UHGV virus genome: UHGV-0186982
Direction: 5' to 3' (one strand)
From: a virus
Length of the DNA: 23,918 bases
Within the stretch, counting starts at the first letter, position 1. Each line of letters opens with the position of its first letter. A model generated the notes under the pieces. The model was given only the letters and a program-made list of their open reading frames with translations. It did no database searches and was not told where the DNA came from. Of the stretch, positions 2,982 through 10,133 are shown one piece after another. The position numbers and the translations under genes are program-made.

Positions 2982-3194
2982 ATGACACAAGCACATCATA
3001 TCCAGAGGTCTCGTACGCCTAAGAATAGCGTCGCCGGTGGGGCGCTACCGTTAAGGCTCTCCCCAGAAGAGCGCGCAGCCATTGAGGAAATGGCAAAAGC
3101 CGAATGCCGCTCTGCTTCAAACATGATTCGTATCGTTTTTTTGCGTGGGCTTGAGGTCATGAAGCCTGGGCAAGAGGCACACCCAGAAAACTAG
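2982..3194 (+). CDS. Small early regulator, possible ribbon-helix-helix protein in the Cro/Cox/Apl position
   Basis: First ORF of the rightward operon; LRLSPEERAAIEEMAKAECRSASNMIRIV resembles RHH (CopG/Arc-like) DNA-binding proteins; no clear SD. Confidence 0.5.
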   Translation: MTQAHHIQRSRTPKNSVAGGALPLRLSPEERAAIEEMAKAECRSASNMIRIVFLRGLEVMKPGQEAHPEN

Positions 3195-3213
3195 ACGTGT
3201 ACCGGGGTGAAAC

Positions 3214-5320: not shown

Positions 5321-6283
5321 ATGACAATGATTAAATCACCCATCAAATGGGCGGGCGGTAAAACCCGCGTCATGCCGCAGCTGCTGAAGCATCTGCCGAA
5401 AGCCGATTGCCTGATTGAGCCGTTCGTTGGCAGCGGTACCGTGTTTATGAACACGGAATACCGCCGCTACGTCCTCTGCGATAGCAACCGCGCGCTGATC
5501 AATTTCTTTCTTGTATTGAGGGATGATACAGAGCGCCTGATAGCGGTTGCCCGCAATATATTTCGGGACGGTAACAAAGCAGATAAATATTACTCCGAGC
5601 GCGAAAAATTCAATTACATGTCATGGTATGAATCAGAAAAGGATTGCCGATCGACATTATGGGCGGCGTCCTTTTTGTACCTGAATCGCCACTGCTTCAA
5701 CGGTCTTTATCGTACAAATCTGGACGGCGGTTTTAATGTGTCATTTGGCCGATATAAACAGCCATATTTCCCCGAAGCCGAAATGCGCTTATTCGCCGAA
5801 AAAGCGCGGGATACCAACGCGCTATTTCTTTGCAATGATTTTCGCACTTCTATTCCGTACATCGCGAAGAATCGCCCGGACTCAGTAATTTACTGCGACC
5901 CCCCCTATATCCCGGCAAGCAAATCCGCCAATTTCACCGCATACGGCAAGCCGTTTACCCTGGACGATCATCGTGCTCTGGCTGCAACCCTGCTCGATGC
6001 TCATCGCCAGCACGGCACCCGCGCGGTGATATCCAACAGCGATACCCCGGAAACCCGCGAGATTTATTCCGCTTTCAACCTCCACGCCTTCAGCGTTCGC
6101 CGTTCCGTTAGCGCCAAAAGCCGCGACATGGCCGGTGAAGTGATCGGCGTGATTCCTGATTCAGTCGACTGCTATACGCGTAGTTGCGCTAGCTGCGAAG
6201 ACGTCGAGGAATGCTTAGCGCCGACAGAGATTTGGATCGGGTTTGATATGGCCGCCGGATTTGATAACGGGGAGCCTTTCTGA
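5321..6283 (+). CDS. dam: DNA adenine methyltransferase, Dam family (D12 class N6-adenine MTase)
   Basis: IKWAGGK...EPFVGSGTVF...LYLNR..FNG...FGRYK.PYFPEAE...YCDPPY...NFTAYG closely parallels E. coli Dam as I recall it; has an extra Cys-rich C-terminal tail (CYTRSCASCEDVEEC). Confidence 0.9.
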   Translation: MTMIKSPIKWAGGKTRVMPQLLKHLPKADCLIEPFVGSGTVFMNTEYRRYVLCDSNRALINFFLVLRDDTERLIAVARNIFRDGNKADKYYSEREKFNYMSWYESEKDCRSTLWAASFLYLNRHCFNGLYRTNLDGGFNVSFGRYKQPYFPEAEMRLFAEKARDTNALFLCNDFRTSIPYIAKNRPDSVIYCDPPYIPASKSANFTAYGKPFTLDDHRALAATLLDAHRQHGTRAVISNSDTPETREIYSAFNLHAFSVRRSVSAKSRDMAGEVIGVIPDSVDCYTRSCASCEDVEECLAPTEIWIGFDMAAGFDNGEPF

Positions 6284-6456: not shown

Positions 6457-6540
6457 GGTACCGCAAATGAACGAAGAAACCAATTACCGCCGCTTCTGGC
6501 GCAATACCGTGATCTGCTGCGCGCTCTGCTCACTGCTGTT

Positions 6541-7653
6541 TTGGCTCCCGATGGGCTGTCTCGCCTTTCGTGTTTTCTCTGTGGTGTGGGAGGCGCTGTG
6601 GTTGCTTATTACAACGAAATAGACCCTCACGCAGCACAGCACCTGCGCAACCTTATCGACGCCGGCCATATTGCGCCGGGCGTCGTTGACACCCGTTCAA
6701 TTGAGGATGTAACCCCCAATGACCTTATCGGATTCAATCAGTGCCATTTCTTCGCCGGGATCGGCGGATGGTCGCTTGCCTTACGCCGCGCAGGATGGCC
6801 AGACAGTCGCCCGGCATGGACAGCATCATGCCCATGCCAGCCTTTCAGCGCGGCAGGCAAAGGACTTGGGTTTGCTGACGAGCGGCACTTATGGCCCTCC
6901 GCACATTGGCTTGTCGGCCAGCGCCGCCCTGTCGTGGTTTTTGGCGAGCAATCTGGCAGCGCTGACGCAGCGGACTGGATCGACCTTGTACAAGCTGACG
7001 TGGAAGCCCTGGGCTATGCCTTCGGGGCGGTTGCGTTTCCGTCTGCGAGCGTCGGCGCGCCGCACCAGAGAGACCGCGCTTATTGGGTGGCCGACGCCGG
7101 CCGCGAACGAGTTCGAACCGAAGGACTTGCAAAGGCTCTTGGAGAGAAGGGAGAAATTCGCGGCCAAGCATGGAAACAACGGGTTTGGCCTGACACTAGG
7201 GCAGGCGGTGCATCTGTTTGCGGGCTGGCCGACACCGACGGCAACGGACGGGAAAGGCGGTTATCAGGGTGGACGAATCCGCAATGGGAAGCTATCGACG
7301 GACAGGCTAGATGTGGCTGCGCAGCTTGCGGGCTGGCCGACGCCGACCACGAGCAACGACCGCTCGCCATGTCCGCAAGAGGCTATGCGGACGTATCGCG
7401 ACAATGGAACAAAGATTCAGAAGCGGCTTCAGGATGTAGCTGCGTTATGCGGCCCGGCCCGGTTAACGGCTTCTGGAGAGATGCTGATTGGCTCCACGGC
7501 CGGGATGGATGGTGGAGGCCAGTTAGACCCGGATCATTCCCGCTGGCTGATGGGATTCCCGCCAGAGTGGGAAGAGTGCGCGCCTACGGAAACGCTATCA
7601 ACATTGAAGCGGCGGCAGCGTTCATAAAAGCGTATATGGCGGCGGAACAATGA
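6541..7653 (+). CDS. DNA cytosine-5 methyltransferase, apparently frameshifted (motifs split between two frames)
   Basis: Frame 1 has motif I-like FLCGVGG, NEID, PCQPFS (motif IV), PHQRDR (motif VIII) and C-terminal GNAINIEAAAAFIKAY (motif X); the overlapping frame 6719..7627 has WPTP repeats and RWLMGFPPEW (motif IX). Stop overlaps the A start (ATGA). Confidence 0.6.
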   Translation: MAPDGLSRLSCFLCGVGGAVVAYYNEIDPHAAQHLRNLIDAGHIAPGVVDTRSIEDVTPNDLIGFNQCHFFAGIGGWSLALRRAGWPDSRPAWTASCPCQPFSAAGKGLGFADERHLWPSAHWLVGQRRPVVVFGEQSGSADAADWIDLVQADVEALGYAFGAVAFPSASVGAPHQRDRAYWVADAGRERVRTEGLAKALGEKGEIRGQAWKQRVWPDTRAGGASVCGLADTDGNGRERRLSGWTNPQWEAIDGQARCGCAACGLADADHEQRPLAMSARGYADVSRQWNKDSEAASGCSCVMRPGPVNGFWRDADWLHGRDGWWRPVRPGSFPLADGIPARVGRVRAYGNAINIEAAAAFIKAYMAAEQ

Positions 7654-10133
7654 CCGCCGCATCAACTGCACCTCACATCGCGCAGCCAGCTCGCGCTGAC
7701 GCCACCCGGTATGATTACGAGTGGCAGAAGCCGAGACCTGCCATTTATGTTGATAAGACTCCTGCTGTTGATCTGGTTGAACTTGGTCAAGAGAAGGAGT
7801 TTTTGGCGTGGGTAAAAGTCACCCTTGCGCCGCTACCTCGCTTTATTCGCCTGCGTCTGGCTTCCCGCGTCGACAGCATTCACACCATGAAGGGCAGACA
7901 CATCGCCCGCCTGGCGCTGCGCGATATCATCCGCAGGGATCTGCCGCCTATCAATATGGTTAATGAGCAATATGCTATTGCGATGACCGATGAGGCTAAA
8001 TCTCAGGCCGATACGGCATTTAAGGGGTTAAACCCGCTTTATCACACGTTTAACACCCTGCATGGGCTGGTTGAGCGCTTTAATCGCCTGCCGGATTTCA
8101 CGCCGGAAGATGTCGAGCTGCTGGCGCAGGATATCGCCATCTATATGCGGTCTGTGCTGAGTGAAGTTCACGAAACTATAGAGACGCAGAGTGATCGCAA
8201 ATATGCCGGGTACCTTTACACCGAAGCGGCCATCCTCGCGCGGCTTTTCTTCCTGACGCCACCGAGCTGGGGAAAGTATTGTCGCGGCGCGTTGTTTATT
8301 GACGAAGCTACTACCGGCATCAGCAAGATGCTGGATGATCGCTACTGGCACCGCAACCTGAAAAAGTACGCCACGCGCTGGCGCGAGCATCTGCACATTG
8401 CTTTTGGCGATGTGAAACGGGGTGCTGCACCGTATTGCAGCAAGCACCACGTTGACGAGTGGGACGCCAGGCGCAAGCGCAGCCGCGCGATCATGGCCCG
8501 CCTTGAACTGGAAGACCAGGATACCAAAGAGCGCATTTCACTTATCGAGCAGATCGATAAGAGCATATCTAACCCGGCGTTGCGCCGCGTTGAACTTATG
8601 ACCCGTATCGGCGGCTTTGAGAAAGTCGCCACCGAAAGCGGCTACGCGGGTCAGTTTTTTACCCTGACAGCGCCATCCAAATACCACGCATATACCGTAT
8701 TCGGTCATCGTAATGCCAAATGGAACGGCGCCAGCCCAAGATCCACGCAGCGCTACCTTAATCGGGTATGGCAGAAAATCCGCGCAGAGCTGGCCCGCCG
8801 CGAAATCCCGGTTTTTGGTCTGCGCGTGGCCGAGTCTCACCACGACGGTACGCCGCACTGGCATGGCCTGCTGTTCTCTTTGCCGGAACATTCCGCCGAG
8901 CTACTGGAAGTGATGGAAGACTACGCCACCCGCGAGGACGCGGAAGAGTTACAGGGTAAGCATGGCAACCAGCCGCGCTTTGACATGAAGCCTATCGATC
9001 ATGAAATCGGCAGCGCCACCGGCTACGTGGTGAAGTACATCAGTAAGAATATTGATGGCTATGCGCTCGATGGTGAAACTGACGACGAGAGCGGCCGGCC
9101 ACTCAAAGAAACATCTAAACATGCTACTGCCTGGGCTTCATGCTGGGGTATCCGTCAGTTTCAGTTTTTAGGCGGCGCGCCGGTGTCTGTCTGGCGCGAG
9201 TTGCGCCGGTTCCGCAATCAGGAGCAGGCCGACAAGATAAACCCACTGTTTGCCGAGCTACACCGCGCGGCCGATGCTGGCGACTGGCAGCAATACACTC
9301 AATTACAGGGGGGCGCACTGGTTGCCCGCCGCGATCTGCCGCTGCGTATCTGGTACCAGCAGAAAGACGAGCCGAATGATTACGGTGAATATCGCGACCT
9401 CATCAAAGGCCTGATGATGCCAGCCGTTCAGATCCCCCCCATTGAAACCCGCCTGCATTCCTACTCAATCGTAAGGAAGAAACCGGAGGTTTTAGACGAC
9501 TCCGGGCAGGCAGTTGACTTTGATTTTGACCTTCCGGGCGCGTCTGCGCCCTCTAGGACTCGTGTCAATAACTGTACCGAGGTTAAAAAACGAACAAATC
9601 AGCCCCCCGGATCACCGCCATTAATGACAGTGCCAGCTGAGCGGGAAGAGCCTGAACAGTTCGAGATCGGTCAGTTAACACGCGAACAGCGAAAACAGGC
9701 GTTTGAAAGCATCCATAACCACAAACCGCAGCGGCATAAATCCCCCGCCGATGAGTTTGAGGCGCTGGCGTACAGCATTACCGTCGGCGACTGTACAGAA
9801 TTTGACACCCGCAGGGCAGAAAGTTATCTCAAGGCCGCCCAGGAGATTAGGCGGAGAGAACAGGTTTTATCACCGGAAATCGCCGGACTGGCGGGCTTAG
9901 TTCAGTCATGGGCGAAAGTGAAGAAGGTGCTGATCAGTAAACCGCAGGCTATACAGCTGGCGCGCGGTAATGAAGTGACGGTGCTGGATACGGTATATCG
10001 AGCGCATCCGGTTACGGGTGAGTTGATCATTGCAGGCGTTGATAAACCGTGGCGCAAAACTCTTGCAGATCATAAGGCCGGCGAGCTAGCGGCTCGCTGG
10101 AAGAAGGCAGCTAAACGGAAAAATGAGAGGTAA
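7650..10133 (+). CDS. A: Replication initiation endonuclease, P2 gpA family (rolling-circle HUH nickase)
   Basis: HUH motif TPHWHGLLF and catalytic tyrosine motif GYVVKYISKNIDGY; 827 aa; position after the early genes. Confidence 0.9.
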   Translation: MTAASTAPHIAQPARADATRYDYEWQKPRPAIYVDKTPAVDLVELGQEKEFLAWVKVTLAPLPRFIRLRLASRVDSIHTMKGRHIARLALRDIIRRDLPPINMVNEQYAIAMTDEAKSQADTAFKGLNPLYHTFNTLHGLVERFNRLPDFTPEDVELLAQDIAIYMRSVLSEVHETIETQSDRKYAGYLYTEAAILARLFFLTPPSWGKYCRGALFIDEATTGISKMLDDRYWHRNLKKYATRWREHLHIAFGDVKRGAAPYCSKHHVDEWDARRKRSRAIMARLELEDQDTKERISLIEQIDKSISNPALRRVELMTRIGGFEKVATESGYAGQFFTLTAPSKYHAYTVFGHRNAKWNGASPRSTQRYLNRVWQKIRAELARREIPVFGLRVAESHHDGTPHWHGLLFSLPEHSAELLEVMEDYATREDAEELQGKHGNQPRFDMKPIDHEIGSATGYVVKYISKNIDGYALDGETDDESGRPLKETSKHATAWASCWGIRQFQFLGGAPVSVWRELRRFRNQEQADKINPLFAELHRAADAGDWQQYTQLQGGALVARRDLPLRIWYQQKDEPNDYGEYRDLIKGLMMPAVQIPPIETRLHSYSIVRKKPEVLDDSGQAVDFDFDLPGASAPSRTRVNNCTEVKKRTNQPPGSPPLMTVPAEREEPEQFEIGQLTREQRKQAFESIHNHKPQRHKSPADEFEALAYSITVGDCTEFDTRRAESYLKAAQEIRRREQVLSPEIAGLAGLVQSWAKVKKVLISKPQAIQLARGNEVTVLDTVYRAHPVTGELIIAGVDKPWRKTLADHKAGELAARWKKAAKRKNER

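Follow-up and report, generated by a model that had tools for sequence, protein, structure and literature searches.

How can a single enzyme be encoded when its conserved motifs lie in two different reading frames of the same DNA? Positions 6541-7653 of UHGV virus genome UHGV-0186982, analyzed here within a stretch of 23,918 nucleotides (the window), raise this question for a C5 cytosine methyltransferase. A sequence-only reading had recognized the enzyme from its elements in frame 1 and frame 2, and had explained the split by a pair of indel errors, a decaying pseudogene or, less likely, a recoding event. The split itself stands: motifs I-VIII and X are read in frame 1, and a set of repeats in frame 2. 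The same reading had named two findings that would speak against it, namely homologues that read continuously in frame 1 across the middle and frame-2 motifs that lack conservation. The first of these holds, as frame 1 is continuous in the homologues, and the second does not, as strong conservation is seen in the frame-2 motifs; this combination points to two overlapping genes, an explanation absent from the earlier account. We propose that these genes encode one C5 cytosine DNA methyltransferase composed of two polypeptides, in the manner of M.EcoHK31I, and we put the probability of this reading at roughly 0.75.

The larger gene, alpha, occupies frame 1 of the plus strand (6598..7653) and encodes 351 amino acids from a GTG at 6598, preceded by GGAGG at 6589-6593. 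It would correspond to the large subunit of the methyltransferase. Its reading frame opens at a TTG at 6541 and has zero stops over 6541..7653, and annotated homologues start alpha at the position equivalent to 6598. The alpha stop and the start of the downstream gene A share an ATGA at 7650-7653, the coupling already described for frame 1. The second gene, beta, is the proposed small subunit and lies on the same strand in frame 2, +1 relative to alpha (6719..7627; 302 amino acids). It is complete, from an ATG at 6719 to a stop codon at 7625-7627, and lies entirely inside alpha, covering 86% of its length. Since both open reading frames (ORFs) are uninterrupted, no shift is needed to translate either frame in full.

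Selection in two overlapping reading frames

We mapped selection along both frames in codon alignments of 41 non-redundant sequences, using divergence at fourfold-degenerate sites with bootstrap 95% confidence intervals (CI). Both frames encode proteins under purifying selection in defined segments, and two of these segments, of 85 and about 40 codons, are selected in both frames simultaneously. The bootstrap intervals of the single-frame and the overlap segments do not overlap. In the single-frame segments, synonymous sites come close to saturation (about 0.57-0.59), which means that the open frames and the start codon discussed below have been maintained through extensive change.

The first segment (6607-6828) runs from YYNEID through FFAGIGG to just before PCQ and is constrained in frame 1 only. 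Fourfold divergence amounts to 0.570 in frame 1 (CI 0.531-0.607) and to 0.09-0.20 in frame 2, where the nominal fourfold sites are the conserved ones and the amino-acid difference is 0.42-0.58. From 6719 onward this segment also holds the N-terminal 37 codons of beta; these first ~37 codons are stop-free and their protein sequence is not conserved.

Beta has a conserved start codon of its own. All 41 non-redundant homologues carry a frame-2 ATG either 42 or 38 codons before PCQ with no stop after it, a configuration that arises at a mean probability of 0.25 per sequence when alpha is resampled synonymously. Most of them have a Shine-Dalgarno sequence before this ATG, and the ATG at -42 is usually accompanied by AGGAG or GGAG 8 nt upstream. 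In the initiation region of the clade to which the window belongs (6703..6721, plus strand), the -42 ATG is directly followed by TAA, and the -38 ATG (6719-6721) is in place with a GAGG (6703-6706) 12 nt upstream. The resulting two-codon mini-ORF (6707-6712) ends six bases before the beta ATG and is kept throughout the clade, where frame 2 reads 'M*PPM'. Other clades begin beta at the ATG of the mini-ORF position, and the mini-ORF may affect beta initiation, e.g., through reinitiation.

From 6829 to 7084 both frames are constrained, with a fourfold divergence of 0.243 in frame 1 (CI 0.170-0.324) and 0.233 in frame 2 (CI 0.168-0.298). Alpha reads motifs IV-VIII here and beta reads ASLSARQ...GSTLYKLTWKPWAMPSGRLRFRLRASARRT. 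Frame-1 amino-acid divergence stays at 0.25 as synonymous divergence drops, and such a drop at unchanged amino-acid divergence indicates a second constraint on the same nucleotides. None of 39/39 homologues has a frame-2 stop in this segment, with 1.0-2.4 expected.

Between 7085 and 7450 frame 2 alone is constrained. Its fourfold divergence reaches 0.585 (CI 0.553-0.613; measured over 7085-7438), its wobble position is the most variable one, and the frame-1 protein is not conserved. Synonymous resampling of the frame-2 codons predicts 3.6-7.3 frame-1 stops in this segment, where 39/39 homologues have 0, and the per-sequence probability of zero stops under this resampling is 0.000-0.022. That frame 1 remains stop-free through an unconstrained middle implies that a ribosome in this frame must read on to motif X. 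The three WPTP repeats and the RWLMGFPPEW that had been reported in frame 2 are indeed present, as GWPTP at 7085, 7223 and 7331 and at 7541-7570, respectively. At the DNA level the unit GGCTGGCCGACNCCGAC occurs in three copies at the same three positions (at most 2 mismatches), compared to 0 expected from 100 shuffles. The number and type of GWPTP modules differ among homologues, with whole modules gained, lost or swapped. Modules such as GWPTPAANEFEPKDLQRLLERRE..GNNGFGLTLGQA are nevertheless conserved as protein in homologues that are only ~50% identical overall. Further stretches specific to beta include GWPTPAANEFEPK and LTASGEMLIGSTAGMDGGGQLDPDHSR.

A second doubly constrained segment follows at ~7451-7575, where beta reads GPARLTASGEMLIGSTAGMDGGGQLDPDHSRWLMGFPPEW and alpha reads PGPVNGFWRDADWLHGRDGWWRPVRPGSFPLADGIPARVGR, with many invariant residues in each frame. 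The fourfold divergence of frame 2 (0.279, CI 0.196-0.367) is about half of that in 7085-7450, and the value for frame 1 is 0.137 (measured over 7454-7570). In the final segment (7576-7650) the constraint is on frame 1 only (0.477, CI 0.360-0.585). Variability is once more highest at the frame-1 wobble (diversity 0.48-0.57), and GNA[IV] is kept as the frame-2 reading drifts (TETLS, TATRS, TAMPS). The C-terminal tail of beta varies in length between homologues and ends at 7627 here.

These segments bear directly on the possibility that a single polypeptide is made by recoding, in which the ribosome would slip by +1 close to 7085 and by -1 close to 7580 or 7590. The changeovers previously placed at 7080..7095 and 7585..7600 are real insofar as the dominant coding frame changes at ~7085 and ~7575, and the order of the motifs on the DNA (I-VIII, repeats plus the IX-like motif, X) is that of an ordinary single-chain enzyme, as recoding would predict. 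Shifts at these positions find no support. Constraint on frame 2 sets in as early as 85 codons upstream of the presumed +1 shift, and the frame has a conserved ATG of its own, while the open frame 1 through the middle in 39/39 homologues would be needless for frameshifting. Reading of the sequence showed neither a stop nor a rare-codon pause site at 7075-7100, and an X XXY YYZ heptamer is likewise absent from 7565-7595. In addition, only ~6 codons separate FPPEW from YGNA, compared to ~20 residues between motifs IX and X of the canonical enzymes aligned. We know of no precedent for two compensating programmed shifts within one bacterial gene and consider this route very unlikely.

Spread of the nested arrangement

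The comparison covered 80 fetched viral loci and, in addition, annotated phage records. Among 86 loci with an alpha-type ORF, 82 keep the +1 frame open for at least 85% of the stretch between PCQ and the alpha stop (median 0.96), while a median of 12 stops interrupts the +2 frame. Four canonical single-frame phage C5-methyltransferase genes, taken as controls, contain 9-23 stops in their +1 frame. The loci range from Klebsiella P2-like prophages through N15 and epsilon15 to Rhodobacter phages and a cyanophage. The same nesting is found in N15 gp58, in K1G, in gp22 of Rhodobacter phage RcPescado and in Synechococcus phage Yong-M2-251. The alpha of this cyanophage is an enzyme of the conventional ENV...GNGVVP type, with WPTA/WPAP repeats and RRSLNPLFVEWLMGWPPGWT in the +1 frame. 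A word-index search returned 5118 beta relatives, and an exhaustive search 11,181 representatives at 50% identity. The best 150 of beta's representative matches are only proteins of the nested-ORF type, with no single-frame ancestors among them.

Public annotation generally gives a different picture. A Klebsiella record, Salmonella phage SI7 and Escherichia phage ESSI2_ev129 are each annotated as one continuous frame-1 protein, with frame 2 open in all three and reading LYKLTWKxWxMPSGRxRFRLRASxRRT..GWPTP..GGQLNPxxSRWLMGLPPEW. The lack of an annotated frame-2 gene at NCBI, where the frame-1 ORF only is listed, would fit the view that no beta protein exists and that frame 2 is conserved passively, through selection on frame 1 or a constraint at the nucleic-acid level; within the two overlap segments, conservation of one frame indeed necessarily conserves the other. 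In 7085-7450, however, the substitutions follow frame 2 (wobble, 0.585), and the frame-1 protein is both unconserved and modeled by AlphaFold2 at low confidence (predicted local distance difference test, pLDDT, of 21-38 across 7085..7450, compared to 80-94 in the N-terminal region of alpha). The protein-level conservation of modules that are shuffled as units in homologues of 50% identity argues in the same direction, as does a +1 frame open in 82/86 loci against the 9-23 stops of canonical genes. Passive conservation thus appears scarcely credible, slightly less so even than recoding.

The same comparison settles the question of sequencing or assembly errors and of a decaying pseudogene. Nothing specific to the window favors either; the one observation in their favor is a variable poly-G tract in some Klebsiella relatives that gives real or artefactual frame changes. 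The window has no such tract, and neither of its frames has a stop. The closest public relatives are Klebsiella prophages: CP052639 is 93.5% identical over one stretch with the same gene order, and independent assemblies contain an alpha 98% identical (P0269, K. pneumoniae) and a beta 91% identical (P0001). With the two-open-frame layout shared by 82/86 loci and distant phages, purifying selection on both frames and the 11,181 frame-2 representatives, both of these earlier explanations fall away, and we regard their probability as practically negligible. The gene in the window is an ordinary, intact member, and it is the architecture of the family that deserves attention.

A few loci are exceptions to the two-open-frame rule. 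In L013 and L015 a frame-2 stop within the first overlap segment leaves a beta of 189 amino acids, and in L034, L036 and L069 the frames are swapped upstream by frame changes. Inactivation of the copy, use of an internal beta start or an assembly error may lie behind these exceptions.

The poly-G tract itself lies in the first GWPTP module of the Klebsiella relatives (L001 at about 3190-3200, CP052639; alignment columns about 806-815); in the window a different module takes this place, which is why the tract is missing there. A G8 tract keeps alpha and beta separate. The proteins P0111, P0112, P0115, P0117, P0118 and P0120 (...QPTGG/GGG/GGGG-VNLQ...) imply G7, G10 and G13 variants, in which the alpha N-terminus is fused to the beta C-terminus, beta is truncated and motif X is lost. 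Such variants could mean that the methyltransferase is phase-variable, or they could stem from sequencing error in the homopolymer.

A description of the nesting as a property of a large phage family was not found in the searchable literature. K1G is among the few records with both ORFs annotated: its ORF31 ('putative C-specific methylase') and the nested ORF30 ('putative Mte8-like protein') belong to the same family with the same +1 nesting. These are annotation labels only, and no functional interpretation of the pair turned up in the searchable literature, where 'Mte8' led only to M.EcoHK31I papers and annotation labels.

A candidate two-chain methyltransferase

The conserved motifs are divided between the two chains. 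Frame 1 contains, in order, YYNEID (motif II-like), FFAGIGG (motif I, binding S-adenosylmethionine, AdoMet; 6748-6768), PCQPFS (motif IV with the catalytic Cys; 6832-6849), GEQS (motif VI, ENV-like), QRDR (motif VIII; 7066-7077) and, from 7585, YGNAINIEAAAAFIKAYM with YGNAI (candidate motif X; 7585-7599) and a helix after it. In its own frame, alpha lacks both a motif IX and a recognizable target-recognition region between motifs VIII and X. PF00145 matches frame-1 residues 94-184 only (E 2.7e-11; profile positions 66-160), a limit that fits a motif split between frames. Alpha matches phrog_363 over its full length (E 1e-84), and hhalign aligns it with canonical phage C5-methyltransferases at 96.6% probability over motifs I and IV-VIII, the latter corresponding to positions 274-378 of phrog_116. 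Its tail YGNAINIEAAAAFIKAYM gives the top local match to canonical motif X (hhalign, positions 448-472, E 0.42); the Pfam match of alpha stops short of motif X, and Pfam recognized neither IX nor X in C-terminal pieces run separately. Beta matches phrog_1008 (E 2e-31) and phrog_31772 (E 3e-44). PHROGs hence hold separate families for the two frames (phrog_363; phrog_1008 and phrog_31772), all labeled DNA methyltransferase.

The C-terminal segment of beta, with RWLMGFPPEW at 7541-7570, can be called motif IX-like by pattern and position only, without statistical support. Its QLDPDHSRWLMGFPPEW resembles the canonical RRLTPxECERLQGFPDxW and is colinear with canonical motif IX, no match being significant. 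In a comparison with six canonical phage C5-methyltransferases, the best local match of beta, LDPDHSRWLMGFPP against LTPIECERLQGFPD, is not significant (hhalign, E 0.61) and falls at canonical positions 417-430. The beta of the cyanophage aligns weakly with positions 436-469 of phrog_116 (E 0.25), colinear with the match of alpha.

How such chains can work together is known from one case: to our knowledge, M.EcoHK31I is the only nested two-polypeptide C5 methyltransferase that has been characterized. This enzyme of E. coli HK31 (Lee, Kam and Shaw, 1995, as told in PMC2836561 and PMC3404938) has its beta gene entirely inside the alpha gene in another frame (PMC2836561). Its alpha carries motifs I-VIII as well as X, its beta carries motif IX, and activity needs both (PMC2836561, PMC3404938), with the N-terminus of beta contributing to the association with alpha (PMC2836561). 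Compared by description, the locus studied here has the same layout, with a beta ORF wholly in alpha in a different frame, motifs I-VIII and X on alpha, and a conserved N-terminal part of beta that is doubly coded with alpha motifs IV-VIII. There are also differences. M.EcoHK31I belongs to a restriction-modification pair, whereas the present gene is an orphan between a Dam methylase and gene A; the target-recognition domain is said to be on alpha there, whereas variable, selected modules are on beta here. With respect to the published description, a beta of 302 amino acids covering 86% of alpha and two separate doubly constrained segments are further differences. The kind of mechanism is thus already known, and what differs is orphan status, size of beta, location of the modules and the presence of two dual segments.

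Two other designs help to place the system. In M.AquI, chain 1 has motifs I-VIII plus half the variable region, and chain 2 the rest with motifs IX-X (PMC3404938). It is likewise a natural two-polypeptide C5 methyltransferase whose chains must associate, split in the variable region between VIII and IX, but there the split is sequential, whereas here beta is fully nested and motif X is on alpha. Canonical single-chain phage enzymes (PF00145; Vibrio phage 1.046.O, Streptococcus phage Javan64) share motifs I, IV, VI and VIII and the DNA order VIII, variable region, IX, X. All of this is in one frame in the canonical enzymes, whereas the variable region and the IX-like motif are in the +1 frame here. 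Another difference is that YYNEID precedes motif I in alpha: YYNEIDPHAAQ is located ~45 residues N-terminal of FFAGIGG (6607-6768), hhalign aligns these stretches to canonical positions 28-39 and 7-13, and the N-terminal motif order of alpha looks permuted compared to ordinary C5-methyltransferases.

In C5 methyltransferases the large domain comprises motifs I-VIII plus motif X, and the small domain the variable region and motif IX (PMC3404938); alpha would accordingly be the large domain and beta the small domain. According to this model, alpha would be translated straight through frame 1 from 6598 to 7653 to yield the catalytic, AdoMet-binding large domain. It would consist of motifs I, IV, VI (GEQ) and VIII, a long spacer that needs only to stay open, a conserved segment of 40 residues, and motif X (GNAI). 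Beta would be translated independently from the ATG at 6719 in the +1 frame, ending at 7627, and would supply what alpha lacks between motifs VIII and X. Its predicted parts are a conserved Arg-rich N-terminal part, variable GWPTP modules in the place that the target-recognition region takes in ordinary enzymes, and the motif IX-like QL(N/D)PxxSRWLMGFPPEW. Both chains presumably associate to form the DNA-binding cleft, as experiments have demonstrated for M.EcoHK31I, and the enzyme would then methylate DNA of the phage (and of the host), with escape from restriction as the most plausible purpose. We infer that beta is made, that it associates with alpha and sets specificity, and what biological role the enzyme plays.

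Several results weigh against this proposal. Methylation activity, complex formation and beta translation are predictions only. Pfam matches nothing in beta, nor in a hand-made frame 1-2-1 chimera, and NCBIfam gives no match for frame 2. A beta profile found only a chance match among PDB sequences (E 1.2) and reached a probability of 0.2 against M.HhaI (hhalign, with an M.HhaI sequence entered by hand). When beta and the chimera were compared with the six canonical C5-methyltransferases, motifs IX and X gave the best local matches, none of them significant. AlphaFold2 models built from shallow alignments have a mean pLDDT of 43.7 for beta and 47.0 for alpha, too low for the models to be usable. 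The C-terminal helix of alpha (residues 336-350) reaches about 60-70, and Foldseek retrieved only generic Rossmann and flavodoxin matches from the PDB for the alpha model (E above 0.04). The 12-nt Shine-Dalgarno spacing to the beta ATG in the clade of the window is long, and counts such as 39/39 refer to non-independent trials, as the homologues share ancestry.

Part of these results would also suit a beta that is separately translated but has a function unrelated to methylation, e.g., as a regulator or anti-defense factor, with alpha acting alone or being inactive. No sequence or profile match of beta to motif IX or to any methyltransferase target-recognition region is significant, AlphaFold gives it no confident fold, and alpha has a conserved segment of its own just before motif X. 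On the other hand, such an alpha would be left with no motif IX or target-recognition region in its own frame, the stretch from motif VIII to its conserved segment being unconstrained. Moreover, the IX-like sequence of beta sits at the exact colinear DNA position, a few codons before motif X of alpha, and the C-terminus of the cyanophage beta matches phrog_10223 ('DNA methyltransferase') with an E-value of 6e-4. The nested pair has been kept together in very distant phages, and the layout is that of M.EcoHK31I. We therefore judge an unrelated function of beta unlikely, and the two-chain methyltransferase remains the reading that we prefer.

Genomic setting and meaning of the nested genes

The methyltransferase locus forms part of the early operon of a prophage that is P2-like (Peduoviridae-type). 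Upstream lies a D12-class Dam methylase (5321..6283; PF02086, E 4e-58), separated from alpha by two small ORFs, and downstream the replication gene A (7650..10133; PF05840, E 2e-99). No restriction endonuclease gene is present next to alpha, the neighbors being the Dam methylase, the two small ORFs and gene A; alpha is an orphan methyltransferase gene. An ORF of 51 amino acids at 6467-6622, hydrophobic and Cys-rich (MNEETNYRRFWRNTVICCALCSLLFWLPMGCLAFRVF...), shares 25 nt with the start of alpha. Its product, listed as hypothetical in the annotation of the Klebsiella relative, may be a small membrane protein. The Dam methylase (5321-6283) extends ~58 amino acids past its Pfam domain (residues 10-262 of 320) with a C-terminal extension rich in Cys and acidic residues (..CYTRSCASCEDVEECLAPTE..).

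Biochemical data on possible relatives come from Paracoccus aminophilus, where the prophage genes JCM7686_0772 and JCM7686_2655 encode m5C methyltransferases that were cloned as whole genes (PMC3925955). Their specificity is relaxed, as CCNGG, CCWGG, AGCT, CCGG and further sites were partially protected (PMC3925955). If these two genes belong to the nested family, then the whole gene is active, which would fit recognition by multiple modules. A search for a Paracoccus phage member of the nested family found none. The YGGCCR enzyme of Paracoccus was dropped as a candidate relative, as it is an m4C enzyme.

Beyond the single locus, the nesting of beta in alpha may be the usual design, and an ancient one, in a very large family of C5-methyltransferases from phages and prophages, in which ~130 codons are selected in both frames and the beta modules set the specificity; we see the case for and against this wider proposal as evenly balanced. 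At 50% identity the family would then number over 10,000 clusters, and its members would extend from the P2-like prophages of enterobacteria, N15 and epsilon15 to Rhodobacter phages and cyanophages. Among viruses that infect bacteria, few cases of dual coding on the same strand are as long and as well conserved as this nested pair, which makes it a good natural system to study the evolution of overlapping genes.

If the proposal is true, common 'orphan Dcm-like' phage genes would be obligate two-chain enzymes with the second chain hidden in the +1 frame, and public annotation, which names one ORF (alpha, in some records only beta), would miss half of the enzyme. Specificity predicted from alpha alone would be wrong, and a codon-optimized or synonymously recoded alpha would destroy beta and give an inactive enzyme. 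The GWPTP modules on beta would be exchangeable, and their shuffling would retarget or broaden methylation. Their variability suggests that new methylation specificities can arise in a modular way in the restriction arms race between phages and their hosts.

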